A DNA stretch of 64,000 nucleotides from Blastocatellia bacterium (GCA_035248905.1 DATFGX010000016.1:91022-155021); one strand, 5' to 3'; shown: positions 3,498 to 29,110, numbered from the stretch's first letter. The notes: generated by a model not told the origin, from the sequence alone. Numbers and translations are program-made.

Positions 3498-6164
3498 ATG
3501 GCAAAGAAGGTTCGGACAAAGCATGCTGGCAAGAAATCTCATGTCAGCGAAGTGTTGGCCGTCCTGCTGGTGGCCACCGCCGTGCTCTTGTTCTTGAGCC
3601 TCATCACCTTCAACCCCGCGGATGCCAGCTTTAATTCGGTCGCGTCAGTGCAGCCGCCGCGCAACCTGATCGGCGTCGTCGGCGCAAGCATCGGCGAGCT
3701 GTTCTTGAACCTGTTCGGGCTGGCGGCGCTGGCCATCCCTTTCCTGCTCGTGTTGATCGCCGTGGCGACGCGCGCTTTCTTTTCTGACGAGGCAGAATTC
3801 CCGGTTCGTAAATCTTTCGGCGCCTGCTTATTGCTGATCGCTTTGTCAGGCGTCCTGGCATTGTTTCCGAAAGTCGGCTTCGTCATCCTGGCGCACTCGC
3901 GCACCAATGGCGGCGCGGTCGGCTATGTTCTCGAAAGCTCGCTGGCGAGCGCCCTCAACACCGCCGGCGCAGCCATCGTGCTGACGGTCGCCGCCGTGCT
4001 GACGCTGATGCTGACGATGAACATCTCGCTGGCGAATCTCGGCACGGCCATGGTCTTTGTAGGCAAAGCGACGAACAAACTACTCGCGCGTTTCCAGACG
4101 TGGCGGGCGACGCGCGCCGAGCAGCGGCGCGAGATGGCCAAACAGCGCGCCGTCGAATTAGCCGAAGCCCGCCGCCGCGACGACGAATTACGTAAACAGC
4201 GCGAGCAGGAAGAGAAAGTCCGGCGCGACGATCTGCGCCGTCAGCAAGAAGAAGAGCGCCGCCGCCGCGCCGAAGAGGCCAAGCGCTTGAAGGAAGAATC
4301 GCCCGTCGTCGTCAAGTCGTCGCGCGCTGCCAGCCCCGAGCCGGTTCTGTCGCAGGCTGCGGTCGCGGCAACGGGCGCGCCGGCGCTCGGCGCTGCGGTG
4401 GTCGAACCCGACCTCGACGAGCTTGAGGCAGACGACGAAGACGCCAGCCCCGCGCCCTTGATGTCGCCGCGCCGTCAGTGGGCCGCCGAAGCCGTGCGCT
4501 CGCGCAACGCGGCGCGACAGGTGCAGACGCGCGGCGTGCGCAACATCGAAGACGAAGAGGTAATGGACCCGGAAGTCGCCGAGATGATCGCGACGGCTTC
4601 CATCGTGCGCACCGCGCCGACCGAGAAAGCCGACAAGCGCGAGCTGGCTTCCAAGCGCAAGACCACGGTCGAGACGTCGACCGGCGCGACCTACAAGATG
4701 CCGTCGCTCGAACTGCTTGAGATTCCCATCGGCCACGCCGAAGAGGCCGAAGAAGAGTTGAAGAAGCGCGCGACGATTCTCGCCGAAAAATGCAAAGAGT
4801 TCGCCGTCGTCGGCCACATCCATAAGATCAACCCCGGCCCGGTCGTCACCACCTTCGAGTTCAAGCCCGACCCCGGCATCAAATACAGCCGCGTCGTCGG
4901 ACTCGCAGATGATCTGTGTCTCGCCTTGCAGGCCGAATCGATCCGCATTGACCGCATCCCCGGCAAATCAACCGTCGGCATCGAAGTCCCGAACCACGCG
5001 CGCGAAAAGATCTGCATCCGCGAGATCATCGAGTCGGCGAAGTTTCAGAACTCGCCCTCGAAGCTGACCATCGCGCTCGGCAAGACGATCAACGGCGAAG
5101 AGTACATCGCCGACCTGACGAAGATGCCGCACCTTTTGATCGCCGGCGCGACGGGGGCGGGCAAATCCGTCACCCTCAACTCGATCATCTGCTCTGTGCT
5201 CTACAAGGCGTCGCCCGAAGCAGTGAAGTTCATCATGGTCGACCCGAAGCGCGTCGAGCTTGGGTTGTACGAAGGCATCCCGCATCTGCTGACGCCGATC
5301 GTCACCGACCCCAAGCGCGCGGCGAACGCGCTGAAGTGGGCCGTCAACGAGATGGAGAACCGCTACCGGCAACTGGCGGAACTCGGCGTGCGCAACATCG
5401 ATCAGTACAATCATCAGATTCAGCAGATGACCGTGCCGACGGTGGCCGCCGACAACCCGGAAGCGCGCAAGCCGCTGCCTTACATCGTCGTGGCGATTGA
5501 CGAGCTTGCGGACTTGATGATGGTGGCGCGCGGCGATGTCGAGACCAGCATCGCCCGCCTGGCGCAGATGGCGCGCGCCGTCGGCATTCACCTGGTCGTT
5601 GCGACGCAGCGCCCGTCGGTTGATGTCATCACAGGCATCATCAAGGCGAACATCCCTTCGCGCATCGCCTTCCGCGTCTCGTCGAAGGTGGACTCGCGGA
5701 CGATCATCGATTCCAACGGCGCCGAAGCCTTGCTCGGCCAGGGCGACATGCTCTTTCTGCCGCCGGGCACGGCGCGGCTCATCCGCGTGCACGGCTCGTT
5801 CGTCAACGAGGTCGAAGTCAAACAGATCGCCGACCACACGCGCCAGCAGGCCGAGCCGGATTACAACGAAGCGGTGACCTTGAGCGATCAGGACACGGGC
5901 GGCACGGACGAGGCCGAAGGGCCGGAAGACGAGATGTTTGGGCAGGCGCTGGAAATCGTCACAGACATGGGGCGCGCTTCGACTTCGGTGTTGCAGCGGC
6001 GGCTGTCAATCGGCTACGGGCGGGCGGCGAAGATTCTAGATATGATGGAGCGGCGCGGCTTCATCGGCCCGTCCGAAGGCGCGTCGAAACCGCGCAAGGT
6101 GCTGCAAGCGGCTTATGACTTCCGCGAGCGCCTCGGCCAGATTCTCGAAGAAGAGGTGGATTAA
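3498..6164 (+). CDS. ftsK: DNA translocase FtsK/SpoIIIE
   Basis: N-terminal transmembrane segments, charged linker, Walker A GATGAGKSV, Walker B IVVAIDELADLM, C-terminal gamma winged-helix domain (VLQRRLSIGYGRAAKILDMME). Confidence 0.92.
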   Translation: MAKKVRTKHAGKKSHVSEVLAVLLVATAVLLFLSLITFNPADASFNSVASVQPPRNLIGVVGASIGELFLNLFGLAALAIPFLLVLIAVATRAFFSDEAEFPVRKSFGACLLLIALSGVLALFPKVGFVILAHSRTNGGAVGYVLESSLASALNTAGAAIVLTVAAVLTLMLTMNISLANLGTAMVFVGKATNKLLARFQTWRATRAEQRREMAKQRAVELAEARRRDDELRKQREQEEKVRRDDLRRQQEEERRRRAEEAKRLKEESPVVVKSSRAASPEPVLSQAAVAATGAPALGAAVVEPDLDELEADDEDASPAPLMSPRRQWAAEAVRSRNAARQVQTRGVRNIEDEEVMDPEVAEMIATASIVRTAPTEKADKRELASKRKTTVETSTGATYKMPSLELLEIPIGHAEEAEEELKKRATILAEKCKEFAVVGHIHKINPGPVVTTFEFKPDPGIKYSRVVGLADDLCLALQAESIRIDRIPGKSTVGIEVPNHAREKICIREIIESAKFQNSPSKLTIALGKTINGEEYIADLTKMPHLLIAGATGAGKSVTLNSIICSVLYKASPEAVKFIMVDPKRVELGLYEGIPHLLTPIVTDPKRAANALKWAVNEMENRYRQLAELGVRNIDQYNHQIQQMTVPTVAADNPEARKPLPYIVVAIDELADLMMVARGDVETSIARLAQMARAVGIHLVVATQRPSVDVITGIIKANIPSRIAFRVSSKVDSRTIIDSNGAEALLGQGDMLFLPPGTARLIRVHGSFVNEVEVKQIADHTRQQAEPDYNEAVTLSDQDTGGTDEAEGPEDEMFGQALEIVTDMGRASTSVLQRRLSIGYGRAAKILDMMERRGFIGPSEGASKPRKVLQAAYDFRERLGQILEEEVD

Positions 6165-8704: not shown

Positions 8705-9538
8705 TTATTTTCCAGAAGGGCTGCTGTAACCATACCGCCGCAGAATCGCCTGTCCTTCGTCGCCCAGAACGAAGTCTGCGAAGCGCCGCGCCAGGTCTTG
8801 TTTGCCGGATGCCTTGATGATCGCCAGCGCCTGGTCTATGGGCTGGTGCAAGCGCTCGTCAACTTCGACATATTGCCCTTCGCCCTGCTTCACCAGAGCC
8901 TTCGGGATGAAGGCGACATCGGCGTTGCCCGACGCGGCGTACTGCTTGGTGTTCGAGACGTTCGTGCCATAGATAACTCTCGGCTCGACTGACACCCAGA
9001 CGTTTAGCGCCTTGAGCGCTTCGACCGTCGCCCGACCATAAGGCGCGAGATCGGGCTTGGCGATGGCGATCATCTTCACGTCCGCGCCCGCGACATCTTC
9101 CACGCGGCTGATCTTGATTCGGCCCTGCGGCGGCGTCCAAACGACGAGGCGGCCGCGCGCATAGACGGCGCGCGAATCCGGCGTGCTCAAGCCTTTCTGA
9201 TTCAGCTCATCGACGTGCTCTACGTCAGCCGCCGCGAAGACATCAAACGGGCCGCCGTTCTCGATCTGCTTGGTCAGGTCAGCCGTGCTGCCGAAGCTGT
9301 AGACGACGCGCGCGCCGGTCTTTGCCGTAAATTGATTGGCGACCTCGGCAAACGCGTCGGTGAGGTTTGCGGCGGCGGCCACCGTGATCTCCGGCGCGTT
9401 CTGTTGCTCGGCTGCCGGTCGCTGGCGACACCCGGCAAGCAAGATCAAGACGACGATCACAACAGCACAGAGTTGCCAGCTTGAGCTAAAGCCGGCGCTT
9501 CGGTTTTCAACTGGTTTCATAGCTCTCCCGCTTTTCAT
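8705..9538 (-). CDS. modA: molybdate/sulfate-family periplasmic binding protein (ModA-like), lipoprotein
   Basis: Lipobox LLAGC; ModA-like core ITVAAAANLTDAFAEVANQFTAKTGARVVYSFGSTADLTKQI...FDVFAAAD; the start may be the RBS-supported ATG at 9520. Confidence 0.75.
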   Translation of the reverse strand: MKSGRAMKPVENRSAGFSSSWQLCAVVIVVLILLAGCRQRPAAEQQNAPEITVAAAANLTDAFAEVANQFTAKTGARVVYSFGSTADLTKQIENGGPFDVFAAADVEHVDELNQKGLSTPDSRAVYARGRLVVWTPPQGRIKISRVEDVAGADVKMIAIAKPDLAPYGRATVEALKALNVWVSVEPRVIYGTNVSNTKQYAASGNADVAFIPKALVKQGEGQYVEVDERLHQPIDQALAIIKASGKQDLARRFADFVLGDEGQAILRRYGYSSPSGK

Positions 9539-11303: not shown

Positions 11304-12371
11304 TCAGCGCGACTTCTGCAACTCTTCGCTGACTCGCGTGTAGACTCCCTGCGGGCCGTAGATGCTGTCGCCGACTTTCTTCCAGCCGCCGAGGTAATCT
11401 ATCTTCCACAAATCCGCAACCGGCGGGAATTGTGATTTGACTTCTTGAGCGACCGTCTGATCCAAGGGGCGCAAGCCATACTTGGCGAAGGCGCGCTGCG
11501 CGTCCGCCGACCAGAGGAAGTTGACGAACGCCTCGGCGACTTCGCGGACGCCGTGCTTGTCCACGTACTTGTCAACCAGCGCCACAGGGTTCTCGATCAG
11601 GATAGTCGAGTGCGGAATGACGTAGTCGTAATTCTGCCCGGCCTGTTTCGCGACCAGTACTTCATTCTCGTAAGTGACGGCCACATCGCCGACACCCTTC
11701 TCGAAGTTGGTGATCGATTCGCGCGCCCCTTTATCCATGATCGAGACGTTGCGAAAAACATTCTGGAGAAATTCCTGCGCCGCCGCCGGATCATCTTTCG
11801 CCACGCCGGCAAAGCCGCGCATTGCCGCGCCGTACATCGCGTTGATGTTCCACTGCGCGCCGCCCGATGTCTTCGGGTCGGGCGTCAGGATGTTCAGTCC
11901 CGGCTGTGCCAGGTCGGCCCAGTCTTTGATGCCTCTGGGATTGCCCGGGCGCACGGCGATGACGACGACCGAGGTGCAGATCATTCCCTTGTTCGCGTTC
12001 GCCTTCCAGTCGTGCGTGATCAGCCCGGCCTCTGTGATCTTATCGATGTCGCCTTCGAGCGATAGCGCCGCGATGTCGGCTTCAAAGCCGCCGACGATCA
12101 TGCGCGACTGTGCGCCGCTGCCTTGATAAGACTCTTGAACCTCGACATCCTGGCCGGTCTTCTCCTTCCAGTATTTTTGAAAGGCCGGGATGATGGCTTT
12201 GCCGTAGGCTTCGCGCGGCGCCGTGTAGCCGCCGAGAATCAAGGTCACGCGGTTGCCGCTCTTGTTTGATCCGCCGCCGCAGCCTTCGAGCGCCAGCGTC
12301 AGCATCAATAGCAGCAGGCCGACGACGGCAGCCGGCCAGCCGGGGGTGCGGGGCGTTTTCTTTCTTCGCAT
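11304..12371 (-). CDS. sbp: sulfate/thiosulfate-binding periplasmic protein (Sbp/CysP)
   Basis: Signal peptide/lipobox; Sbp-family conserved blocks (YTAPREAYGKAIIPAFQKYWKEKTG, QSRMIVGGFEADIAALSLEGDID). Confidence 0.8.
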   Translation of the reverse strand: MRRKKTPRTPGWPAAVVGLLLLMLTLALEGCGGGSNKSGNRVTLILGGYTAPREAYGKAIIPAFQKYWKEKTGQDVEVQESYQGSGAQSRMIVGGFEADIAALSLEGDIDKITEAGLITHDWKANANKGMICTSVVVIAVRPGNPRGIKDWADLAQPGLNILTPDPKTSGGAQWNINAMYGAAMRGFAGVAKDDPAAAQEFLQNVFRNVSIMDKGARESITNFEKGVGDVAVTYENEVLVAKQAGQNYDYVIPHSTILIENPVALVDKYVDKHGVREVAEAFVNFLWSADAQRAFAKYGLRPLDQTVAQEVKSQFPPVADLWKIDYLGGWKKVGDSIYGPQGVYTRVSEELQKSR

Positions 12372-12503: not shown

Positions 12504-12755
12504 TCTCGTCGCGGCGTAATGCCCTTCCTTTTAGCCTGCGAGGTTAGCTGACGGGCTTGGACTGGAAGTGTCCTACGAGTGCCTCAGACTCGATACGCCC
12601 CTGCCGCGTCCACAACGACGCGACCCTGGTTCCCCCGCGTTGCCCTTCTCACGCCCTCGGCGCCGCGAGCAACTTCGGCAGACATACTGTGATGCAGGAA
12701 TCTTACGCAGGTCGGTTGAGAAAGTCAAAAACAAATATCATCGCCGCTACTTCGC

Positions 12756-13937
12756 TCAATCGCCGGCGGCCACCGGCTCGGCGGCGAAGGCGAGGTCCAT
12801 CAGCGACGTCTCGTAGCGGTCGCAGAGTCGCTCGGCGAGCACCGAGACGATGCGCCCGGCGGCGCGGCCATCGCCGAAGGGATTTTCGGCGCGGCTCATC
12901 TGCGCGTAGGCTTCGGCGTTCGACAACAGCAAGGCGGCCTCTTCGAAGATGCGCTCGGCGTCCGTGCCCACCAGGCGGCCCGCGCCGCATTCAATCACTT
13001 CGGGCCGCTCGGTCGTGTCGCGCAGCACCAGCACAGGCTTGTTGAACGACGGCGCTTCTTCCTGAATGCCGCCCGAATCCGAGAGGATGAAATAACTGCG
13101 GCACATCAGCCGCAGCAGGTCCGTGTAGCCGACCGGATCAACCAGATGAATGCGCGGCACGCTGCCGAGTTGTTGCATGACGACCTGGCGCACGTTGGGG
13201 TTCAAGTGGACGGGATAAACGATCTCGACATCTGTGAAGCGGTCAACGATCGCTCGCAAGCCGTCGCAGATCGCGTGCATCGGCAAACCATGATTTTCGC
13301 GGCGATGCGCCGTCACTAGCAGCACGCGGCGGCGCGCGAAATCCACTTCGTTCAAGCGCGCATCCGCGAATGGCCCGTCGAGCGGGATTGAGCGCAGCGC
13401 GTCAACGATTGTATTGCCGGTCACAAAAATATTTTCCGGCGCGACGCCTTCGCGCAAGAGGTTGCGCCGCGCGCCTTCGGTCGGCGCGAAGTGCATGTCC
13501 GACAGGCTGCCGGCAAGCCGGCGATTCATCTCTTCGGGAAACGGATTGCGCGTGTCGAACGAGCGCAGCCCGGCTTCGACGTGGCCGACACGTATGCCCT
13601 GATAAAAAGCGGCGAGCGCCGCAATCGTCACCGTCGTCGTGTCGCCCTGCACCAGCACCGCATCCGGCTTGATCTCGCTGAACAGCTCGGAGAGTGACGC
13701 CATCGCCCGCGCCGCAAAGCCGCCGAGGCTCTGGTTGTGCTGCATCAAATCCAGATCAATGTCAGGCCGCGCGCCGAAGACCGCGAGCACTTGATCGAGC
13801 ATCTCGCGGTGCTGCCCCGTAGCGACCAGTAAATGCTCGAAGAGGTCGCTGCGGCGATTCAACTCACGCACGACCGGCATCATCTTGATGGCTTCCGGTC
13901 GCGTTCCCATCACAGTCACGACACGCTGTCGCTTCAT
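12756..13937 (-). CDS. wecB: UDP-N-acetylglucosamine 2-epimerase (non-hydrolysing)
   Basis: Full-length match to the WecB/MnaA family pattern (MKRQRVVTVMGTRPEAIKMMPVVRE..., HVEAGLRSFD, LVTGNT); about 390 aa. Confidence 0.9.
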   Translation of the reverse strand: MKRQRVVTVMGTRPEAIKMMPVVRELNRRSDLFEHLLVATGQHREMLDQVLAVFGARPDIDLDLMQHNQSLGGFAARAMASLSELFSEIKPDAVLVQGDTTTVTIAALAAFYQGIRVGHVEAGLRSFDTRNPFPEEMNRRLAGSLSDMHFAPTEGARRNLLREGVAPENIFVTGNTIVDALRSIPLDGPFADARLNEVDFARRRVLLVTAHRRENHGLPMHAICDGLRAIVDRFTDVEIVYPVHLNPNVRQVVMQQLGSVPRIHLVDPVGYTDLLRLMCRSYFILSDSGGIQEEAPSFNKPVLVLRDTTERPEVIECGAGRLVGTDAERIFEEAALLLSNAEAYAQMSRAENPFGDGRAAGRIVSVLAERLCDRYETSLMDLAFAAEPVAAGD

Positions 13938-13949
13938 ATCGTTTCCCCT

Positions 13950-15794
13950 TTATTCGCTGAATCCGTAATTCAGGTTGCGATCAACCACAAAGCTGAGCGG
14001 CTGCCGCGACACCCGGCGGCGTCCAAGCAGCAGGTCGCTCAAAGACGGCTCGCGGTCGGTGACAATCATCTCTTCGACGGCAATGTGCGGCTCGACCATC
14101 ACCGGTTGCGCCGGCGCCGTGCGCCGCCGGCTTGCGGCAGTCGCGGGCCTGGCTGGCGACGACAGGTCGCGGCGGACGCGCTCGACAAAGGCCGCCGCTT
14201 GCGCGGCGCGTTCGCGGGCGATGTCGGCTTCGATCATCTGCCGCAGCTCGCCGAGCGCATCTTCTAATCGCCAGTCGGACGAAGGCTGCGGCGTCAGCAT
14301 CTCTTGAATGCGCGCGACGGTGGCGCGGCCCGCGCTCGTCAGCGCCTCGGCGACGCCGTGCTGGTTGGCGACAACTTCGCCGTGCGACGGGAAGAAGTGT
14401 TGTGTCTTGTCCCAGGCGATCCGCTTGCCCTGCATCTCTGCGGTCAGGAACTGGCGCGTCGCGCGGAAGGTCACCGTGACGTTGATGATGTTACCCCAGA
14501 CCAGCCGCGGGATCGATAACAGCCCTTGCTTGAAATTGTAGATGCGCGTCGTGGCGATGAAGCGTTGCAGCATACGATTCAACATCATCGCCATGCAGAG
14601 CGCCACCGCCAGGCTGACCCACCAGTGCTCATGCATGATCGGCGCGATGTCTGGCCAGATGGTCTTCTGCAACAGCAGGTGAATCAAGCCGAACGCCAAA
14701 AACAGATAGTTGAGACAGACGAGGCTGTTGGCCCACACGCCTTTGCGGTCGTGGAACAACATCCAGCGCGTGCGCGCGCTGCCCGTCCAGCCGAAGTGCT
14801 TCCAGTTTTGAAAAATGATGCCGACCATCCAGCGCGTCCGCTGGCGCACGGCGGTCTTGAAGGTCGCAGGGAAGTGCGCCCGCGTGGCGATCAGCTCGGT
14901 CTGCTCTTTCTGAGCGCCGGTTGACTTTTTGCGCACCAGCGCCTGGCGCACGAAGATGGCTTTGTGGCCGCTCATCTTCAAGCGCAGGCCGAAGTCATAA
15001 TCTTCCGTGAGCGAGTTGGTGTTAAAGACCTTGTCGCCGTACTCCTCGGAAAGCTTGTTGAAGACGCTGCGCGCGATGCAGGTGCCGACGCCTGCCGACG
15101 GCACAAAGCCGTTGGCCCACTCGCGCACATAGATGTCTTTGGTGTGCGTCTCGGCGAACTCGTCCATGTAGCTGCCGGCGGTGAACAGTTGCGCCGGCAC
15201 TTCGATGGGGAAGACCGGCGTCTGAATCATGTTCACGCGCCGCTTGGTCATCAGGTAGTTGTAGAGCTTCAGCTCCAGCGGGTGCAGCACGTCTTCGGGG
15301 TCGTGCATGACGATGAAGTCGTATGGTCTGCCGCTGATACGCTCCTGCTTGCGCAGCGTCGCGAACGCCGCGTTGAGGTTGTCGGCCTTGTTCGACGGGC
15401 CGGGCTGCGGGTTGACGGCTTTGTGGACGTTCGGCAGCCGCGCCGCCGCCGCATCGATCTTCGCCTGCGTCGGCAGGTCGTTCGGGTAGCAGGCGATGAA
15501 GAAGTCATAATTCTGATAATCGATCAGCTTGCTGTTGGTCACCAGCATCTCTTCGATCACGTCTTCTTCGTGCCAGGCGGCGACGAAGATGGCGGCGCGC
15601 TTCTGCGGCACGGCGTCGAGGTCTTCGTCCGTAAGCAGCGGGTATTTGCGGCGCGGGTAGTTGATGCGGCGCACAAGGTAAGAGAGCCAGTAGTAGACAT
15701 CAACGAACAGGTCGTCGAGGCCGCTGATGATGTTGCCCAGCGCCAGGAAGGCGAAGAGAATCTCGGTGATCAAGATAGTGTGAGGGCTATCCAC
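13950..15794 (-). CDS. integral-membrane processive family-2 glycosyltransferase, NfrB/PgaC-like polysaccharide synthase
   Basis: N- and C-terminal TM helices; GT2 core with DxD (MHDPEDV) and processive-synthase Q(R)xRW motif (QRTRWMVG); N-terminal segment (ISGLDDLFVDVYYW..., CYPNDLPTQ, PGPSNKADNLN) resembles NfrB-type synthases; about 170-aa C-terminal extension. Confidence 0.75.
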   Translation of the reverse strand: MDSPHTILITEILFAFLALGNIISGLDDLFVDVYYWLSYLVRRINYPRRKYPLLTDEDLDAVPQKRAAIFVAAWHEEDVIEEMLVTNSKLIDYQNYDFFIACYPNDLPTQAKIDAAAARLPNVHKAVNPQPGPSNKADNLNAAFATLRKQERISGRPYDFIVMHDPEDVLHPLELKLYNYLMTKRRVNMIQTPVFPIEVPAQLFTAGSYMDEFAETHTKDIYVREWANGFVPSAGVGTCIARSVFNKLSEEYGDKVFNTNSLTEDYDFGLRLKMSGHKAIFVRQALVRKKSTGAQKEQTELIATRAHFPATFKTAVRQRTRWMVGIIFQNWKHFGWTGSARTRWMLFHDRKGVWANSLVCLNYLFLAFGLIHLLLQKTIWPDIAPIMHEHWWVSLAVALCMAMMLNRMLQRFIATTRIYNFKQGLLSIPRLVWGNIINVTVTFRATRQFLTAEMQGKRIAWDKTQHFFPSHGEVVANQHGVAEALTSAGRATVARIQEMLTPQPSSDWRLEDALGELRQMIEADIARERAAQAAAFVERVRRDLSSPARPATAASRRRTAPAQPVMVEPHIAVEEMIVTDREPSLSDLLLGRRRVSRQPLSFVVDRNLNYGFSE

Positions 15795-15854
15795 GGTGAT
15801 CTTCCTTGCTGTTCTCGATCAAACAAAAGTTCGGGGCACGGCCTTAAGCCGGCG

Positions 15855-17177
15855 CTATTCTTTCGCGTAGTACTTGCCCACGGTCAGCATCAGGCGAAAG
15901 TCGTTGTACCGCGAGCCGTACGGGTTCGGCTCGCCGGGGCGGGCGATGCCGAAATAAAATCCCTGCACGTATTCGCCGCTCACCGAAACGCCGAGCGGCC
16001 GCCAGGGCGTGAAGCGCAGGCCGCCGGCAGTCTCGGCGACGTTGTTATAAAAATCTCGCCCGCTGTCTTTGACGACGCTGGCGCGCCCGTAGAGATCGAG
16101 CGATGACTGCTTCCACTGGAAGAAGCGCAAGCCTTCGCGCGCCTGCCCGAAGGCGATGAAGTTATTGCGGAAGCGGCTGTAGTAGCTCGCATCAAAGTAA
16201 ACATCGCCGACCAGCTTCATCGGCGCCGAAGGGCCGGCGGTCTCGGCGACGCTGTCCCACTCGCGCGAGTAGTAGACGCCGGCGCGAAAGTCCGAACGCG
16301 CGCGCACCGTCGAGAGCGAGTTTTGCAGCAGGTTCTTGGCGATGCCGGCTTCGCCGTAGACGGTCAGGTTGTTTTTGAACGGGCGGGCGCGCACGCCGAC
16401 GCCCGCGACCAGAAAATTATCCGAATAGATCTGCGGCGCGCTGCCGGCGGTTGACCGCGTGTCGCGCGTCAGGCGCAGGCTGGCGTAGGCTTCGACGGCG
16501 TGTGAGGATTCCAGCACGAAGCCATTGCGAATGACCAGCGGCGCGATGAAGTTGCCGAAGCGCTGTTGATAAAACGGCGCGGCGTAGACTTCGCTGACGA
16601 ATGTGCCTTCTTTGTAACCGCCGCCCGCCGGCTGTAGGTTGCGCAGCGCCGTGCGCGCTTTGGCGCGCAGGTCGGCGTTTTCCGAGTTGGCGACTTGTGC
16701 GAACAGCTCGCGCGCCTGCTGCTTGTCGCCGAGCTTGTCGTAGAGATAGCCGAGCTGTGTCTTCACCTGATCGTTGTGCGGGTCGCGCTTTTCGACTTCG
16801 AGGAACTGGGCGAGCGCTTCGCGCATCTGCCCCTGGTGGAGGTAGAGGTAGCCGAGCTGTGAACGCACCTGCACGTTTTCGGGGTCGAGCTGAATCGCCT
16901 GCTGAAAAGCCGTGATGGCTTCTTTGTCTTTGCCGCTCGACAGCAAGGTGTAAGCGAGGTCGAGGTGTGAGCGGACGTTCGTCGGGTCACAGTCGACGGC
17001 GCGGCGGAAGCTCGCAATGGCTTGCTCGTACTTCGTCTCGCGCAACAGGCCATAGCCTTCATTGAGATAGCGATTACACTGTTCATTGTTCGACTGCGCC
17101 GACGTGGTGAGCGCGGCGGCGGCGGCGAGCAGCAGTGTGGCCAGCACACGGATGAGGCGAGAGACATGGGCATTCAT
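15855..17177 (-). CDS. outer-membrane protein with N-terminal TPR repeats and a C-terminal predicted beta-barrel (miniaturised PgaA/NfrA/BcsC-like exporter architecture)
   Basis: Signal peptide; about 4 TPR units (res 30-190); the C-terminal 250 aa has an alternating aromatic/hydrophobic beta-strand pattern (NFIAFGQAREGLRFFQW, LRFTPWRPLGVSVSGEYVQGFYF). Confidence 0.55.
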   Translation of the reverse strand: MNAHVSRLIRVLATLLLAAAAALTTSAQSNNEQCNRYLNEGYGLLRETKYEQAIASFRRAVDCDPTNVRSHLDLAYTLLSSGKDKEAITAFQQAIQLDPENVQVRSQLGYLYLHQGQMREALAQFLEVEKRDPHNDQVKTQLGYLYDKLGDKQQARELFAQVANSENADLRAKARTALRNLQPAGGGYKEGTFVSEVYAAPFYQQRFGNFIAPLVIRNGFVLESSHAVEAYASLRLTRDTRSTAGSAPQIYSDNFLVAGVGVRARPFKNNLTVYGEAGIAKNLLQNSLSTVRARSDFRAGVYYSREWDSVAETAGPSAPMKLVGDVYFDASYYSRFRNNFIAFGQAREGLRFFQWKQSSLDLYGRASVVKDSGRDFYNNVAETAGGLRFTPWRPLGVSVSGEYVQGFYFGIARPGEPNPYGSRYNDFRLMLTVGKYYAKE

Positions 17178-17411
17178 ACGGAACCTCCTGGACGATTCGG
17201 CATCCCCTTCACACAGTCGTTTTTATTTTCGCGGGGGCATTCAAGCTAAATTGCGAATGCCGGAATTATCGGAGTTTTTGCCGGCTTTTTCGCAGCTTTC
17301 GTTAGAAATAATGGGGAGACTTCAAACCCTGCGGCGAAGATAATTCATGCCCGCCGCCGCGTCAATTACCTTAACAGGTGAGGCCATCGCGCTTTCTTTA
17401 CAAAACCGTTT

Positions 17412-18548
17412 TCAAAACCGCTGCCCGACATCGGAAGGGCGCACGGCGTTTGCGGCCCAGTCGGCTTTAATCACTTCGATGAGCGCGCTGGTCTGTACGT
17501 CGCGGTGATTGCGGGAGTCGGGGCCGCGGCGGAAATTGAACTCGTCGTAATCGAGCGGGAAGCTCGTCTCCCACAGCCAGAGCGCGTGGTTGGCGCCCAT
17601 CGCTTCGATCAAGCGCATCTGCTGGGCGGTGTAATCGCTCGCGCCCTTCGCGAAGCGCTCGACGCCGAATTCGTTCACGGCCATCGGCACGCCATTCTCG
17701 TTTTTGAAATCATTGATGCGGCGGTAGAGCGCTTCAACCTCCGCCGGCTCGTAGCCGGCACGCCGGCTCTCCTGATGCGAATACTCATACGGCTCGTACT
17801 GGTGAACGGTGTAGACCGTGCGCGCGTCGCCATTCAACTCAAGCCCGTCGAGCGAATCCACCGTGCTCCAATCCGCCGCGCCGATCAAGATCGGCGTGCG
17901 CGCGTCCACTTCGCGGATGGCCGCGGTAATCTGCTGCGCCAGGCGGTTCCACACGCCATGCTTTTTCGTCTCCGGCTCGACCATCAAGTCATAACCGACG
18001 ACGTTGGCGCGGTCTTTCAAACGCCGCGCCGTCTCGCGCCACATCTCGACCCAGGCGGCCTGCGCCGGTTTCGACTTCCAGACGCGCGACGGCTTTGGGT
18101 CATCGTCATCAAAGATCTCTTCTTTGCGCCCAGGCCCTGTGCGGAACGAGATGACGACGAAGAGGTCGGCCTGCTCGGCGCGGTCAATCAACTGTTGCAG
18201 GTTTTGAAAGACGGCGTCGTCGAAGCGGTAATCGCCGCCTTCGCTATAGACGCCGGGGTGCGAGATGTTGACGTAGTTCGCGCCCCACGCCGCCAACTGT
18301 TTGAAGTCTTGTTGCGAGTAAGGCGGGCCGACCGGCCCCGGCCCCATCTCGTCGTCGTCGGTGACGCGCTGCTGCCAGATGTTGGCGCCGCGCAAGGTGG
18401 TCGGGCCGCGCCACAGGTCGAACTTTTCGCGAATCGTCGCGAACGCCGGCGGCGCGGCGGCGACAGACGCGCTAGTCGGCGTCGGGCCGCCGCCATAAAG
18501 CAGCGGCCCGATCAGGAGCAGGGCAATCAGCAAACTGGGTTTCATCAC
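17412..18548 (-). CDS. secreted glycoside hydrolase family 5 (cellulase-family) enzyme
   Basis: Signal peptide; GH5 hallmarks: NEP-like acid/base region (VGYDLMVEP) and nucleophile region (AVNEFGVE). Confidence 0.65.
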   Translation of the reverse strand: MMKPSLLIALLLIGPLLYGGGPTPTSASVAAAPPAFATIREKFDLWRGPTTLRGANIWQQRVTDDDEMGPGPVGPPYSQQDFKQLAAWGANYVNISHPGVYSEGGDYRFDDAVFQNLQQLIDRAEQADLFVVISFRTGPGRKEEIFDDDDPKPSRVWKSKPAQAAWVEMWRETARRLKDRANVVGYDLMVEPETKKHGVWNRLAQQITAAIREVDARTPILIGAADWSTVDSLDGLELNGDARTVYTVHQYEPYEYSHQESRRAGYEPAEVEALYRRINDFKNENGVPMAVNEFGVERFAKGASDYTAQQMRLIEAMGANHALWLWETSFPLDYDEFNFRRGPDSRNHRDVQTSALIEVIKADWAANAVRPSDVGQRF

Positions 18549-18646
18549 ATCGCCTCATTAACTACCTGGGAGCGCGGGCATCTTGCCCGCCGTCCCGCGC
18601 CTGCATAATGCCGGCGGGCGGGACGCCCGCGCTCCCAGGTCATCCT

Positions 18647-20545
18647 TTACTTGTACTCGAACGCCGCCGGCAAGGTCGCGCTGCGCCCGTCCGTATTCGT
18701 CACCTTCACGTCTACCTTGCCCTTCGCACCGGCAGGCGTGCGGCAAGTGATCTTCGACGAGTTGACGATGACGACATTGGTCGCCGGGTTCGCGCCGATC
18801 ATCACGGTCGCGCCGGCTTCAAAGCCCGTGCCCTCGATGGTCACGTTGGTGCCGCCGGATTTCGAGCCGGAGTTCGGCGAAATCTTCGTCAGGCCGAGGA
18901 TCAGGTCGCGCATGCCGACCCAGGTGTAGCCCAGTTGCGTGATGCCATTCACCAGATTGGTAAAGTCCGTGTAGGCGTTGAGGAACGCCAGGTCCGGCTC
19001 GACCCAGAAGGGATGGAAGAAGAACGAGCCGAAGCCATCGCGTACCACCAGCGCATACTGCGCGTTCGTCAGCAGGTCTTGCCAGGTGTAGTTGAGGCAC
19101 GAGGTCGGGTCGATGCTGCAAATGTCGTATTCGATGTTGCCCAGGTTTTCAGGCAGGACGCGCTGCCCGTAATAATCCGACGAGATGATGTACGGGTAGA
19201 ACATGCCGCCGCTGAAATCATGGTTGGTGACGTTCGGGTCGAGCACCGGCGGGTCTGACGTGTAGTAGACCGCACGCTGATAGGTATTCGGGAACAGCCC
19301 GTTGATGGCGGCGTAAGCTTTCGGCGACGCCTGGTAGTGCGGCGCTTCGAACACGTCGGCCTGATAGCCGCTGCCTTGCAATTCGGCGATGCCTGCGCTC
19401 AAGCGATCAGCCGCCCAGGCGAACGAGTCTTCGGCGACGGGCCGGTTGCCGGTGGCGTACCAGAATTCGAAATCGTCGGCGCTCACCGCCGTGTGCAGGT
19501 TCGGCACGTTGCTGTACTGGTGCGTGTAGCCGTGCATCAGCACAGAGCCGCCGCGCGTCTTGGCGTACTTCAAGGAGCTCAGCAGGTCATCCGCGTCGGC
19601 CAGATGAATCTCCTGCGACACGCCGCCGTTGTAATGGCCCAGCGGGTCGCGGTAGAAGGGGATCACAGCGATCGAGAAGTTGATCTTCTTGCCTTTGAGG
19701 AAATCGGTCAGCCGCGCCATCGCATTCTTATCAACGGTCGCGGCAACGTCTTCCAGGCGCACCATCGCGCGGTGCTGCTCCGGGTGGTTGATGCCGAGAA
19801 TGTCGTGCAGGATGTCGCACAGCGCCAGGTAGCGGTCGCGCGGGCCGATGAACGACAGCGGCAGGTCGGCGAAGTACCAGAAGTTGCCCGCACGGACGAT
19901 GTACGGCGCGGTCTCCTGCGTGACGGTGTTCTTGGCGGTCACCAGCGTCGTCGCCTTGGTCGCGTCGGTGATCTGCACGAAGCCAAAATCAGGGTCGGCA
20001 TTCACTGTGTTGGTCGCCGCGTCGTAGGCGTAATACTTCACCATCGCCTTGTTCTTGTAGGTGATCGTGTCAAAGAAGCCGGGGGCAGGATTCGCAGACG
20101 ACGGCGTGCTGTTCAGCCCGCGCAGGTTGAGGAAGTTGAAGCCATGCGTCGCCGGGAAGTTGTAGGTCGCGTCCCAGCTCAGCTTCCAGAAATTATACTT
20201 GAACCAGACCATCGGCTTGGTGGTCTGCGCCGCGTCCGCGAGGAAGCTCACCGGCAGCGGGTTGTCGTAGAGCGCGCCCATGTAAAACGTCGCCTGGTGC
20301 GCATTGATCTGCCCGGCGGTGTAGGTTTCGACCGGCACGAGGTCGGCTTTCATCTGAAAATGGCCGAGCAGGTTGCTCAACATAATGGCGTAGATGAATC
20401 CCAGCTTGCCATATTGCGTGTTGGTCGAATCGTAGAGGATCAGCACGGGATTGGCGGTCGGCGCCGCCTGACTGCGCGAGCGCTGCGGCACGTAGGCAAT
20501 CAACATTCCTGCGACGAGGGCAAAGATGAGCAAAGTCTTCTTCAT
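18647..20545 (-). CDS. secreted polysaccharide deacetylase-like (DUF2334-type) protein with C-terminal IPT/TIG domain
   Basis: Signal peptide (MKKTLLIFALVAG) with AGGAGA RBS; central region with RLEDV...HGYTHQ motifs of the DUF2334 putative deacetylase fold; C-terminal Ig-like IPT/TIG (SPNSGSKSGGTNVTIEGTGF...). Confidence 0.5.
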   Translation of the reverse strand: MKKTLLIFALVAGMLIAYVPQRSRSQAAPTANPVLILYDSTNTQYGKLGFIYAIMLSNLLGHFQMKADLVPVETYTAGQINAHQATFYMGALYDNPLPVSFLADAAQTTKPMVWFKYNFWKLSWDATYNFPATHGFNFLNLRGLNSTPSSANPAPGFFDTITYKNKAMVKYYAYDAATNTVNADPDFGFVQITDATKATTLVTAKNTVTQETAPYIVRAGNFWYFADLPLSFIGPRDRYLALCDILHDILGINHPEQHRAMVRLEDVAATVDKNAMARLTDFLKGKKINFSIAVIPFYRDPLGHYNGGVSQEIHLADADDLLSSLKYAKTRGGSVLMHGYTHQYSNVPNLHTAVSADDFEFWYATGNRPVAEDSFAWAADRLSAGIAELQGSGYQADVFEAPHYQASPKAYAAINGLFPNTYQRAVYYTSDPPVLDPNVTNHDFSGGMFYPYIISSDYYGQRVLPENLGNIEYDICSIDPTSCLNYTWQDLLTNAQYALVVRDGFGSFFFHPFWVEPDLAFLNAYTDFTNLVNGITQLGYTWVGMRDLILGLTKISPNSGSKSGGTNVTIEGTGFEAGATVMIGANPATNVVIVNSSKITCRTPAGAKGKVDVKVTNTDGRSATLPAAFEYK

Positions 20546-21078: not shown

Positions 21079-21468
21079 TTAACTGAGGGTCAGTCGGAGG
21101 CCGAGCTTTTCACAGATGGCGCGGATGCGCTGGATGCGATGACGCGACGGCAGTTCGAGGATGGGCGAGCCTTTCGCCCGCGGCTTGCTGACGCCGGCGT
21201 GCGCCGCTGATCTCCAAAGGAGGGTTTCGCCGCGCGGCAGTCGCTTCAATTCAGAGGTGAGCGCATTGATGCCGATGCGCTCACTTGCTTTCGCGGTAAT
21301 CTCGTCGTAGCTCTTGGCGCGATTCGTCCCGGCAATCACGGCATAGTGCCAGCGGCCTTTCACTTTCCAGCTATACAGCTCGTAGCCTTTCACGGCCTGC
21401 GCCGCCTGCGCCGAAGCGACGAGCGCGACAAGTAAACCGACCGCGGTAATTGATCTGCGTAGCATCAA
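21079..21468 (-). CDS. small secreted hypothetical protein
   Basis: Signal peptide MMLRRSITAVGLLVALVASAQA; protein-like composition. Confidence 0.45.
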   Translation of the reverse strand: MMLRRSITAVGLLVALVASAQAAQAVKGYELYSWKVKGRWHYAVIAGTNRAKSYDEITAKASERIGINALTSELKRLPRGETLLWRSAAHAGVSKPRAKGSPILELPSRHRIQRIRAICEKLGLRLTLS

Positions 21469-21483
21469 GCCTCCTTGAACAGC

Positions 21484-22980
21484 CTAGCGGCAGGCGCAGG
21501 TGTTGTTGTTAATGTTGCGGTCGGTGATGCTGAACGTCCGCCCTTGCGCGTAGAGCTGAATCGCAGCCGTCGCCTTGCCGGTCGCTGTGTCAATGGTCGC
21601 CGTCACCCGGCGGTCGCTGGCGTTGTGTTGTAAGGTGATCGTGCTGCCGCGTCTGGTCAGTGTGCCGCTGCCGCCGACCGTCAACCCGGCGCAGTTAGTG
21701 AACTGGTACTCGCCGGTCGAGGTGTTGATTTGGAGAAGGCTGCCGCTGCTGTCATCTTGGACGCAGAGGTCGAATGGAGGGGAAGCTTCGTATGCGCCGA
21801 CGTCACAACGAAACACCCCATTTCTATCGCCGTCTTGCGGGCGGGCGACACCTCGCTGATCCTGGGTGACCGGATTGAGGAACACGTCGGTACAGTCAGT
21901 GACGGCGTCGATGGCGACGCTGCCGGGCAAGAGCGCATAAGTAGCCGCCGTCCCTGGGGCGTTGACTTGCAGCGGGCCGAGCTTAAGTTGAGCGAGCGTG
22001 ACCAGAGTAAAGCCGGAAGGAGGTGTAGGGGGGAAGACATAACAGGAATCCTCCGTCGTCAGATTGATTCCCAAGGCGTTGACAGTTCCCTCGTTAACGC
22101 AGTCGTTCCCCGCCTGGGCCGCCAGGTTGTTAGCCAGGATTGAGTTCTTGATGTTGACCGTGCCGAAAGTATTGAAGCCGCCGCCGGCGCCGGCAGAGTT
22201 CCCAACCAGTGTGCAATTGGAAATATTCGCCGTGCCGCTGTCGACGACAATGGCACCGCCGTCGCCTAAGCCGGCAGAGTTATCTGATAGCGTGCAATTG
22301 GTCAGGGTCAGGGTGCCGCCATTGTTTGCGATGCCGCCGCCATTGATAGAGAAATTGTGATACAGCGTGCTGTTGGCGAGTGTGACGATTCCACCGTTAT
22401 TGCGGATGGCCCCGCCACTGATGATACAGGAGTTGTTTGACAGCGTGCTATCGATGATTGAGACGGTGCCGCCGTTATTGTTAGTAATGCCGCCCGCTTC
22501 AGAAGCGGAATTCTCCGATAAAACGACGTTCGCCAGGGTCACTGTTCCGCCGTCATTGAAGATTCCTCCACCATCTGAAAAGTGGGCGTTTCCTTGACTG
22601 ATGGTCAGACTGGAGAGTTTTATCGTATTACCGCTGGCGACCTCAAACACCCGCGACGCATGGTTGCCGCTAATGACAAGGCTCGACGCAGCGGGGCCGG
22701 TAATGGTCAGGCTATCACTAATGAGCAGTTCCCCTGTCGTCAAGAGAATCGTTCCGGTGAGGCCGGCCTGAAAACTAATCGTGTCGGCACCCGAATGACT
22801 GTTCGCATCAAGGATCGCCTGACGGAGTGATCCCGGCCCGCTGTCGTTGAGGTTCGTTACCGTAAATGCGGTTTGCGGCAGGGCGGCACGCTGCACGCGC
22901 GCCCCGAAAGAAGGGCTTGGAAGAATCAGCGCCAGAATAATGAGGCTCAAGGTAATCCGGCTTGAACGATGTTCGAGCAT
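21484..22980 (-). CDS. secreted right-handed parallel beta-helix repeat protein (Pmp/CSLREA-like GGAI repeats)
   Basis: AAGGAGA RBS before MLEHRSS; more than ten tandem repeats of the GG[AG]I.NNGGT[VL]T[LI].N[ST]TL type characteristic of beta-helix adhesin-like proteins. Confidence 0.7.
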   Translation of the reverse strand: MLEHRSSRITLSLIILALILPSPSFGARVQRAALPQTAFTVTNLNDSGPGSLRQAILDANSHSGADTISFQAGLTGTILLTTGELLISDSLTITGPAASSLVISGNHASRVFEVASGNTIKLSSLTISQGNAHFSDGGGIFNDGGTVTLANVVLSENSASEAGGITNNNGGTVSIIDSTLSNNSCIISGGAIRNNGGIVTLANSTLYHNFSINGGGIANNGGTLTLTNCTLSDNSAGLGDGGAIVVDSGTANISNCTLVGNSAGAGGGFNTFGTVNIKNSILANNLAAQAGNDCVNEGTVNALGINLTTEDSCYVFPPTPPSGFTLVTLAQLKLGPLQVNAPGTAATYALLPGSVAIDAVTDCTDVFLNPVTQDQRGVARPQDGDRNGVFRCDVGAYEASPPFDLCVQDDSSGSLLQINTSTGEYQFTNCAGLTVGGSGTLTRRGSTITLQHNASDRRVTATIDTATGKATAAIQLYAQGRTFSITDRNINNNTCACR

Positions 22981-23135
22981 AGAAGTCTCCTTTAGTTCGC
23001 GGCCAAGATTCCATGCTTGTGAACTATGGGCCAATGACCGTCATCAAATCTCAGCGTGACCGCCGATACCATATCGCAAGGGTTAATCGCGAGCAAGAGC
23101 GCAGTCACAATCCTGAGCAGGCTGCGTCCGGCCTT

Positions 23136-28615: not shown

Positions 28616-28684
28616 GATGCCTCTCCGAAGCCAATCAACCCTTGTGAGCGTTGCGCCCGCAAGCCGGCGCGGCGCTCACGCTTT

Positions 28685-29110
28685 GGAGTGAATCTGTAAG
28701 CCGAATTCTGTTCCGCCCCTCTCAGAAATCAGCGTCGCCCGAAGGCGCGCCGGCGTGAGCATGAGAGCAGCGGCGACGGTCATTCATCTAGGCGGCGGAT
28801 TGCTCCGCGCGCTCAAGCGACCTACCCGGAGACTTCGGACGGGCCGTCCTGATAACGTCTCCCTATTTGGTCTTGCACCACGGAGAGTTTGCCTAGCCAC
28901 GGTGTGTCGCCACCCGTGCTGGTGGGCGCTTACCCCACCGTTTCACCCATCACCTGATCCGCGAAGCGCGGCCATCGGCTGGTCTGTTCTCTGTTGCACT
29001 TGTCGTCGGGTCGCCCCGCCTGGCCGTTAGCCAGTCCGTAGCCCTGTGGTGTTCGGACTTTCCTCTCGCTCGCTGAAAATCAGTGAGCCAGCAACCGCCC
29101 GATTCACTCC
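28685..29110 (-). ncRNA. rnpB: RNase P RNA (bacterial type A), minus strand
   Basis: Reverse complement carries universal rnpB blocks: GAGGAAAGTCCGAACACCACAGGGC (P4 5' side), GGGTGAAACGGTGGGGTAAGCGCCCACCAG (P10-P12 region), ACAGAATTCGGCTTAC (P4 3' side); P1 pairing GGAGTGAATC/GATTCACTCC; terminator hairpin GTGAGCG...CGCTCAC just downstream (28641-28684). Confidence 0.9.

Follow-up and report, generated by a model that had tools for sequence, protein, structure and literature searches.

A 64,000-nucleotide (nt) stretch of DNA from a Blastocatellia bacterium of the Acidobacteriota (GCA_035248905.1, DATFGX010000016.1:91022-155021), referred to here as the window, contains six minus-strand genes that probably constitute a compact Nfr-type synthase-dependent exopolysaccharide (EPS) system. 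They encode a small secreted peptide, a YdaL-type DUF2334-TIG protein, a GH5-family glycoside hydrolase, a 440-amino-acid (aa) predicted outer-membrane protein with tetratricopeptide repeats (TPRs) and a C-terminal β-barrel, an NfrB-family processive GT2 synthase, and the UDP-N-acetylglucosamine (UDP-GlcNAc) 2-epimerase WecB. The Nfr kind of system is already known, and its synthase family and precursor logic are shared by this locus. The locus departs from that kind in its smaller predicted porin, which is not homologous by sequence, the degenerate sensor on the synthase, the GH5 enzyme in the hydrolase slot, and the module of DUF2334 protein and small peptide, which betaproteobacterial nfr clusters share.

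A preliminary description of the sequence had listed five co-directional minus-strand genes with an NfrAB-like logic. ORF (open reading frame) calling and domain searches confirm all five at their described positions, and the module comprises six genes, since the conserved gene for a 71-aa secreted peptide that opens it had been overlooked. The NfrAB-like interpretation is upheld, and none of the observations that the description had named as contrary to it was made.

The NfrB-Family Synthase and WecB

By sequence, the GT2 protein is a true homolog of NfrB. It is 38% identical to Escherichia coli K-12 NfrB across 539 aa (BLASTP, E 1e-115), in an alignment that begins at the N-terminal ISGLDDxFxDVxYW helix and ends near residue 536. 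The NCBIfam NfrB models match the protein at E 1e-137 to 1e-140. Among these, NF008411 (NfrB; E 1e-137) covers residues 11-536 with profile positions 10-538 of 723 at a score of 460 bits, which lies under its equivalog cutoff of 1170, and the "glycosyl transferase family protein" model PRK14716.1-3 is matched at 434.5 bits, above its cutoff of 409. The active-site motifs DPED (165-168), TED (263-265), and QRTRW (318-322) are invariant in an alignment of 21 sequences, and hydrophobic segments lie at residues 7-30, 353-375, and 391-409. A sequence search of the PDB with the synthase gave no match. NfrB homologs number in the thousands, and many are labeled "bacteriophage N4 adsorption protein B". 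The earlier impression of an NfrB-type synthase is borne out, with homology running from the N-terminal transmembrane (TM) helix through approximately residue 536.

WecB is a non-hydrolyzing epimerase that matches TIGR00236 at 472.3 bits against a cutoff of 210.15, with residues 5-368 aligned to profile positions 2-363 of 366, and PF02350 at E 3e-120. The match to TIGR00236 is of equivalog grade and confirms the described role of WecB as the enzyme that makes UDP-N-acetylmannosamine (UDP-ManNAc). Its gene begins 12 nt past the synthase stop codon, and the gap holds only a ribosome-binding site (RBS; AGGGGA), so wecB is not set apart from the synthase gene by the internal terminator or promoter that the preliminary description had considered. 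In every related locus examined, wecB is linked to an nfrB-like gene. PMC8669469 presents nfrB-wecB linkage as a hallmark of Nfr systems, which supports UDP-ManNAc as the substrate.

The Degenerate MshEN Module of the Synthase

Canonical NfrB homologs contain two 24-residue motifs, R(R)LGDLLL...Q and (K)LGEVL...Q, located about 20 residues past an invariant WDKT; the equivalents in E. coli NfrB are RPLGQILL (L490/G491) and LRLGG (G519). The window synthase aligns to the RLGDLLL and KLGEVL motifs of the canonical homologs and of E. coli NfrB column for column and without gaps. It reads HGVAEAL at the first, with V481/A482 at the E. coli L490/G491 positions, and WRLEDAL at the second, with E511 at G519, and the motif-1 arginine is absent. 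In E. coli NfrB, the G491L substitution abolishes function and G519S lowers it, according to PMC8669472 and PMC8669469.

A profile hidden Markov model (HMM) of the MshEN pair was built from the motif-pair region of 68 canonical homologs, with E. coli NfrB outside the training set. It scores the window synthase at 10.8 bits, compared with a maximum of 5.5 bits for 200 shuffles and 71.8 bits for E. coli NfrB. Ralstonia NfrB and Paraherbaspirillum soli NfrB reach 62.7 and 66.2 bits, respectively. In what follows, homologous proteins are numbered from P0001 upward and related loci from L001 to L020. P0001, from a Blastocatellia metagenome-assembled genome, is 100% identical to the window synthase. 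Within the clade of the window synthase, P0006 scores 41 bits, P0005 22, and P0004 14. A canonical MshEN pair (at least 25 bits) is present in 94 of the 120 best NfrB homologs; 16 terminate just past WDKT, 4 bear other C-terminal domains such as HEAT, and 7 are weak on the profile, five of which (P0001-P0005) belong to the window's own clade. At the C-terminus of P0092, P0102, P0115, P0034, P0083, and P0103, HEAT (PF02985/PF13646) or DUF4388 (PF14332) domains replace MshEN or are added to it, which suggests alternative regulatory inputs within the family.

The preliminary description had left the C-terminal extension of the synthase unassigned and had pointed to MshEN and PilZ as domains to look for. 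Pfam finds neither MshEN (PF05157) nor PilZ in the synthase or in its isolated tail, whereas the motif-pair profile places the relic above all 200 shuffles. Judged by this match and by the ungapped alignment, the extension is a decayed MshEN relic and can no longer be called unassigned.

The relic is not uniformly eroded. Motif 2 (WRLEDALxELRQMIEADI) is well conserved across the window clade, and the sister sequences P0005-P0008 retain an intact GLGD in motif 1. The terminal motif of the synthase (PSLSDLLLGRRRVSRQPLSFVV...YGFSE) is conserved in P0001-P0008, aligns colinearly with LLGELLVEAGxIS at the end of canonical NfrB homologs, and weakly matches motif 1 of the canonical profile; in sequence it resembles a single MshEN-type motif. 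Because relic motif 2 and the terminal motif both stay conserved within the clade, repurposing of the tail is favored over neutral decay. Since the consensus residues that bind cyclic di-GMP (c-di-GMP) have been replaced, canonical activation of the synthase by c-di-GMP is probably lost or strongly weakened, and the enzyme is likely controlled through transcription or through the repurposed tail.

The Predicted Outer-Membrane TPR-Barrel Protein

The 440-aa protein occupies the NfrA position of the locus. TPR matches in Pfam, including a weak one to TPR_Slam, lie at residues 35-175, and Pfam gives no match C-terminal to them. An AlphaFold2 model with 31 family sequences as input (pLDDT 87.8) consists of a signal-like helix, nine helices at residues 32-181 that form four TPRs and a cap, and strands at residues 193-439. 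The C-terminal half is modeled as a 12-stranded β-barrel (pLDDT 89), and the protein has a conserved RDTRSxGGxAPQI(Y/F)SDN loop. The described layout of an N-terminal TPR domain followed by a barrel-like region agrees with the Pfam matches and with this confident model, which sets the predicted number of strands at 12. The E. coli NfrA barrel was modeled with 16 strands (PMC8669472), a number that the 440-aa protein does not reach. The best structural matches of the barrel are PcoB and autotransporter barrels, not EPS porins. Twelve-stranded barrels include the BrkA and Hbp autotransporter domains, the COG4313 channel, VhGalP, Tsx, NanC, and KdgM.

No similarity to the NfrA barrel is detected. 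PF13283 (NfrA_C) has no match in the 440-aa protein at E up to 10, compared with 169.7 bits for Ralstonia NfrA; the family HMM of the barrel protein gives E. coli NfrA just 1.5 bits; and hhalign of a barrel-only profile with E. coli and Ralstonia NfrA_C gives a probability of 0.8%. Full-length hhalign to NfrA residues 593-972 is colinear with a probability of 90% that is largely TPR-driven. The 997-aa family member P0293 was considered as an NfrA relative and rejected, as it has no significant similarity to E. coli NfrA.

With the barrel alone as query, an exhaustive search identified 443 representative proteins (E up to 1e-3). The barrel is at or very near the C-terminus in every one of the 150 matches listed, whose total lengths span 157 to 1405 aa (median 447); family members differ in how long their N-terminal region is. 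On sequence grounds, the 440-aa protein is a member of a separate large barrel family, typically about 450 aa long, and is not NfrA. The earlier view of a drastically miniaturized exporter is correct in that the protein is smaller than the 990-aa E. coli NfrA, but about 450 aa is a normal length for the family of which it is a member, and it lacks the NfrA_C signature.

The Small Peptide, DUF2334, and GH5 Proteins

Three proteins of the module (DUF2334, GH5, and TPR) have hydrophobic N-termini that fit signal peptides. The 71-aa peptide has a hydrophobic segment at residues 4-22 and matches nothing in Pfam or NCBIfam. L001, L010, and L012 keep its gene as the immediate upstream neighbor of the DUF2334 gene, which makes four loci with the window. 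Ralstonia, Burkholderia, Paraherbaspirillum, and the metagenome locus L019 likewise have a small ORF (83-126 aa) in front of their DUF2334 genes.

The DUF2334 protein starts at an RBS-preceded ATG at position 20545, giving 632 aa. It is composed of an N-terminal domain of about 230 aa without a family match, the DUF2334 domain (PF10096, 157.5 bits against a cutoff of 26, E 4e-46), and a C-terminal IPT/TIG domain (PF01833, E 1.5e-18). The protein is 61% identical over 521 aa to the Ralstonia solanacearum cluster protein, with conserved LEDV and MHGYTHQY motifs, and reaches 56-62% identity with proteins from Ralstonia, Burkholderia, and their relatives; homologs are named "YdaL" by JGI (Joint Genome Institute). 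A PDB sequence search matched it through the TIG domain only, and the CE4 profile PF01522 has no match in the DUF2334 segment. It is described as deacetylase-like because DUF2334 falls in the deacetylase-like superfamily, the LEDV and HGYTH motifs are conserved, and there is a weak NCBIfam match to a GlcNAc-PG deacetylase. The YdaL-type protein would probably act as a de-N-acetylase or esterase that requires a metal. DUF2334 is essentially absent from the literature searched; YdaL is reported as required for the Bacillus subtilis YdaJKLMN EPS (PMC13274460). Homology of the DUF2334 protein to E. coli YbcH was ruled out, as YbcH is a DUF4434 protein and BLASTP detects no similarity.

The GH5 protein matches PF00150 at 111.8 bits against a cutoff of 23.5 (E 5.6e-32) and GH5 endoglucanases in the PDB at E 3e-19. 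Four orthologs all retain the glutamates proposed as acid/base (in DLMVEPE) and as nucleophile (in NEFG). Near residues 188-193, all four orthologs have Val (VEPE) in place of the usual Asn (NEP) before the acid/base Glu, and a tie between this change and a 2-acetamido substrate is speculation. GH5 plausibly fills, by analogy, the hydrolase slot of E. coli YbcH, the product of the third gene in the nfr operon, whose family DUF4434 is TIM-barrel glycosidase-like. A sequence relationship between GH5 and the 299-aa neighbor in the Ralstonia cluster was also considered and dismissed for want of similarity. In L010, the GH5 ortholog (3969-5078) has a divergent C-terminus and a spurious K_trans_C Pfam match, and this divergence is probably due to a frameshift or an assembly chimera. 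The secreted DUF2334-type deacetylase-like protein with an IPT/TIG domain and the secreted GH5 hydrolase of the preliminary description are thus both retained, on the basis of the PF10096, PF01833, and PF00150 matches, the two catalytic glutamates, and the hydrophobic N-termini.

Conservation of the Locus

The six-gene order is conserved in L001, L010, and L012. L001 is an 89%-identical relative that carries the TPR-barrel/NfrB/WecB trio. L010 and L012 have the complete order at 60-63% synthase identity with unrelated flanking genes, and because the order recurs at this identity with different flanks, the arrangement is not due to chance. The trio is present in L001-L007, L010, and L012 and occurs in both gene orders, with L007 reading wecB-nfrB(MshEN)-barrel. 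DUF2334 and GH5 genes are lacking next to the trio in L003/L004, which are Acidobacteriota contigs with 65% synthase identity, and in L005, a soil-metagenome contig whose trio genes overlap and whose synthase is like Gemmatimonadota proteins. L008 has a BcsB-like gene instead. A profile scan of genome contigs with a 16-sequence alignment recovered only four loci, all in Acidobacteriota metagenome-assembled genomes.

Related clusters are found in Betaproteobacteria. Ralstonia solanacearum L017 (3307-11639) reads nfrB(MshEN)-nfrA(NfrA_C)-wecB-small ORF-DUF2334 and has an additional 299-aa gene without a family match. Paraherbaspirillum soli L020 (2293-11892) reads nfrB-nfrA(1096 aa)-DUF4434-small ORF-DUF2334, with wecB adjoining on the opposite strand. 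Identity between the window and Ralstonia proteins is 61% for DUF2334, 48% for WecB, and 35% for NfrB, and the outer-membrane proteins share only TPRs. The DUF2334 protein is a recurrent Nfr accessory that is undescribed in the papers searched, and the DUF2334/small-ORF module is a frequent, not obligate, Nfr partner. The passages searched in the two 2021 Nfr papers make no mention of these accessories, and PMC8669469 reports NfrB homologs almost exclusively from Proteobacteria.

Probable Transcription Units and Flanking Genes

The gaps between the genes, in the order DUF2334, GH5, TPR-barrel, GT2, wecB, are 98, 234, 60, and 12 nt, so that the synthase gene begins 60 nt past the TPR-barrel gene. 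Consensus scans for promoters and terminators yielded counts near shuffle expectation and reported no terminator-like site in the TPR-barrel/GT2 and GT2/wecB junctions. The promoter-like TTGACG-17-TATCTT sits in a block, GGTAATTGACGCGGCGG..ATGAATTATCTTCGCCGC, that is nearly identical in the window, L001, and L013, and a long hairpin lies 3′ of the GH5 gene in L001. Because this conserved promoter-like element lies in the 234-nt gap upstream of the porin gene, the locus likely consists of two adjacent transcription units, peptide-DUF2334-GH5 and porin-synthase-wecB. The five described genes are indeed co-directional, and their treatment as one locus is qualified by this probable division.

The 3′ boundary of the module is sharp. 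Past wecB lie a promoter-like site, a cyclic di-AMP (c-di-AMP) riboswitch, and a terminator-like hairpin, which lead into a sulfate-type ATP-binding cassette (ABC) transporter operon. The riboswitch element is conserved in L001 and L013, and sulfate transport is an uncommon target for riboswitches of this class.

On the 5′ side, a 129-aa ORF (21079-21468, minus strand) without a Pfam or NCBIfam match lies between the small-peptide gene and a choice-of-anchor Q gene, and L001 has a 128-aa gene at that place. The choice-of-anchor Q gene, just upstream of the module (21484-23034, minus strand), encodes a 516-aa protein with a hydrophobic N-terminus, beta-helix-like repeats, and a domain that matches the choice-of-anchor Q model NF041518 (E 7e-13). 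The gene is missing from the otherwise syntenic L001 and is therefore a lineage-specific insertion. Further upstream, at 28681-29110 on the minus strand, is a bacterial RNase P class A RNA gene (RF00010, 276 bits).

Table 1. Features of the Nfr-type locus and its 3′ flank. Coordinates are positions in the 64-kb window; all module genes are on the minus strand.
Feature	Position	Strand	Remarks
Small secreted protein, 71 aa	20613-20828	-	Hydrophobic signal-like N-terminus, P..CKGH motif, AAGGAGG RBS
YdaL-type DUF2334-TIG protein, 632 aa	18647-20545	-	PF10096, PF01833
GH5-family glycoside hydrolase, 378 aa, secreted	17412-18548	-	PF00150
Promoter-like element TTGACG-17-TATCTT	17337-17365	-	Consensus scan; within 234-nt gap 5′ of TPR-barrel gene
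Predicted outer-membrane TPR-barrel protein, 440 aa	15855-17177	-	Signal peptide, 4 TPRs, predicted C-terminal barrel; NfrA position
NfrB-family processive GT2 synthase, 614 aa	13950-15794	-	N-terminal TM helix, GT2 domain, C-terminal TM helices, cytoplasmic tail
Degenerate MshEN motif pair in synthase (residues 476-532)	14199-14369	-	HGVAEAL...Q503 and RLEDAL...Q532
Synthase C-terminal tail motif (residues 580-614: ...PSLSDLLLGRRRVSRQPLSFVV...YGFSE)	13953-14057	-	Clade-wide conservation
wecB, non-hydrolyzing UDP-GlcNAc 2-epimerase	12756-13937	-	TIGR00236, PF02350
Promoter-like site	12728-12700	-	5′ of riboswitch
c-di-AMP riboswitch, full-length	12518-12690	-	RF00379, 70.3 bits against gathering score of 38; 66 nt past wecB stop
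Terminator-like hairpin with T-run	12500-12475	-	3′ of riboswitch
Sulfate-type ABC transporter operon	sbp 11304-12371; cysT/cysW-like permeases; modA-like binding protein 8705-9538		Downstream of riboswitch

Proposed Pathway and Alternative Explanations

In the proposed pathway, WecB would convert UDP-GlcNAc to UDP-ManNAc, and the inner-membrane NfrB-family GT2 synthase would polymerize a ManNAc-containing glycan and move it across the inner membrane. In the periplasm, the secreted GH5 protein may trim or modify the polymer as the functional counterpart of E. coli YbcH, the DUF2334-TIG protein may modify it as a de-N-acetylase or esterase, and the small secreted peptide may assist in its processing. 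The polymer would then leave the cell through the short TPR protein with its barrel of about 12 strands, which would act in place of the 990-aa NfrA. In its most specific form, the hypothesis is that the locus encodes a minimal Nfr system uncoupled from c-di-GMP, whose ManNAc-based polymer would be exported by an unrecognized family of short TPR and 12-stranded-barrel porins, with the peptide/DUF2334 module as an undescribed core Nfr accessory that extends to Ralstonia. This most specific form is tentative and has a less than even probability.

Several points weigh against the proposed pathway. To our knowledge, the Nfr polymer is chemically undefined even in E. coli, DUF2334 has no demonstrated activity, and no 12-strand polysaccharide pore has been characterized among synthase-dependent systems. 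Four TPRs by themselves are too few to span the periplasm. The replacement of G by A in motif 1 is mild, and residual c-di-GMP binding is conceivable. The 234-nt gap with its promoter-like element means that the GH5/DUF2334 unit is possibly expressed independently, and in Burkholderia and L019, DUF2334 and the small ORF have no nfrB gene within 9 kb of them.

The last two of these points, together with the strong hairpin past the GH5 gene in L001, would also fit two independent systems lying side by side, where the barrel/NfrB/WecB trio makes and exports polymer alone and the peptide/DUF2334-TIG/GH5 trio is an unrelated glycan-degrading or envelope-modifying unit. L003/L004, at 65% synthase identity, and the Gemmatimonadota-like loci keep the first trio without DUF2334 or GH5, in line with such independence. 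It is nonetheless unlikely, given that the six-gene order is held in L001, L010, and L012 despite differing flanks, that DUF2334 and the small ORF are embedded in the nfr clusters of two betaproteobacterial genera, and that the hydrolase slot (YbcH/DUF4434) belongs to the E. coli and Paraherbaspirillum nfr operons. A single Nfr system with accessory functions is preferred for the locus as a whole, and the two other alternatives concern its parts. One holds that the synthase is still regulated by c-di-GMP, with the MshEN relic or the terminal LSDLLLGRRR motif binding this or another nucleotide in a non-canonical manner. The score of the relic above all 200 shuffles, the intact GLGD in motif 1 of P0005-P0008, and the clade-wide conservation of motif 2 and the terminal motif, which suggests selection and not neutral decay, are consistent with a retained sensor. 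Regulation of this kind is quite unlikely in view of the Ala and Glu at the positions of the essential E. coli G491 and G519 (PMC8669472) and the loss of the motif-1 Arg. The Pfam searches of the synthase gave neither a PF05157 nor a PilZ match, no ORF with a GGDEF motif was found in the 64-kb window, and no c-di-GMP riboswitch or other RNA element was found inside the six-gene locus.

The function of the 440-aa protein can also be read differently. As an assembly or anchoring factor of a Slam-like or BamD/LptD-like kind, it would not serve as a conduit, and the glycan would be periplasmic, cell-bound, or exported by another route. A barrel without an NfrA_C, PgaA, or BcsC sequence signature, closest structural matches to PcoB and autotransporter barrels and not to EPS porins, a weak TPR_Slam match in Pfam, and the presence of only four TPRs would be in keeping with such a role. 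Proteins of this type, however, sit exactly at the NfrA position in numerous loci of either gene order, often overlapping nfrB, and their barrel is always C-terminal to TPR regions of varying length. KdgM and NanC, which are 12-stranded, conduct oligosaccharides. A TPR region followed by a C-terminal barrel is the architecture of PgaA, BcsC, and NfrA (PMC8669472). A non-conduit role is very unlikely in light of these observations, and export through the barrel is the preferred function.

Significance

The Nfr exopolysaccharide system was recognized only in 2021, and its polymer is chemically undefined so far. If the proposed pathway is correct, the short TPR and 12-stranded-barrel family would be the smallest known outer-membrane conduit for a synthase-dependent exopolysaccharide, represented by hundreds of proteins across Acidobacteriota, Gemmatimonadota, and other environmental phyla. 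Nfr systems reach well past Proteobacteria into abundant, poorly cultured soil phyla, and their outer-membrane partner is interchangeable, with a distinct small barrel family standing in for NfrA_C. The c-di-GMP sensor appears evolutionarily labile, as canonical, decayed, and truncated states occur within one clade. DUF2334/YdaL and the small secreted peptide, which are also present in plant-pathogenic Ralstonia, are candidate genes for polymer modification, and the compact six-gene cassette is an attractive heterologous-expression unit for determining polymer structure.

Comparison with Known Systems

The B. subtilis YdaJKLMN system similarly combines a DUF2334-type protein (YdaL), a glycoside hydrolase (YdaJ), and a GT2 synthase (YdaM) (PMC13274460; PMC5422440). 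B. subtilis differs in that it is Gram-positive and has no outer-membrane porin, a separate c-di-GMP receptor (YdaK), a BcsB-like protein (YdaN), and no known link to wecB.

PgaABCD shares a common grammar with the window locus, consisting of a processive GT2, a TPR-porin, and a periplasmic deacetylase/hydrolase for an N-acetyl-hexosamine polymer. The scores of the PgaA models stay at 26-33 bits, well short of their cutoffs of 366 and 1043, with TIGR03939 at 33 against 366 through the TPRs only. None of the matches listed for the module proteins is to a PgaB or PgaC NCBIfam model, and the synthase matches NfrB models. Furthermore, the window DUF2334 protein is not a CE4/GH153 PgaB, and there is no PgaD in the window locus. 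The relation to Pga is one of analogy, not membership. What had been described as Pga-like logic is better understood as a conserved Nfr/Yda-type accessory, as DUF2334 occurs in betaproteobacterial nfr clusters and PgaABCD signatures are not found.

The clusters of Ralstonia (L017) and P. soli (L020) resemble the window locus in bringing together genes for NfrB, a TPR-barrel protein, WecB, a small ORF product, and a DUF2334 protein that is 61% identical to that of the window. Unlike the window locus, they retain the canonical MshEN pair and the NfrA_C barrel and lack TIG and GH5. In place of the GH5 of the window, P. soli has DUF4434, and Ralstonia has the 299-aa protein without a family match.

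Compared with NfrB-NfrA-YbcH and WecB of E. coli, which form the N4 glycan receptor system (PMC8669469; PMC8669472), the window locus has a degenerate MshEN pair where that of E. coli NfrB is canonical, and a barrel protein of 440 instead of 990 aa that lacks NfrA_C and is predicted to have 12 strands instead of 16. It also places wecB inside the operon, contains the additional DUF2334-TIG and small-peptide genes, and resides in a host of the phylum Acidobacteriota. The two systems have in common a homologous synthase with an equal N-terminal TM helix, GT2 motifs, and C-terminal TM block, a dependence on or linkage to WecB, an outer-membrane partner that joins TPRs to a C-terminal barrel, and a secreted TIM-barrel-type hydrolase-like accessory, which is the DUF4434 protein YbcH in E. 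coli and GH5 in the window.

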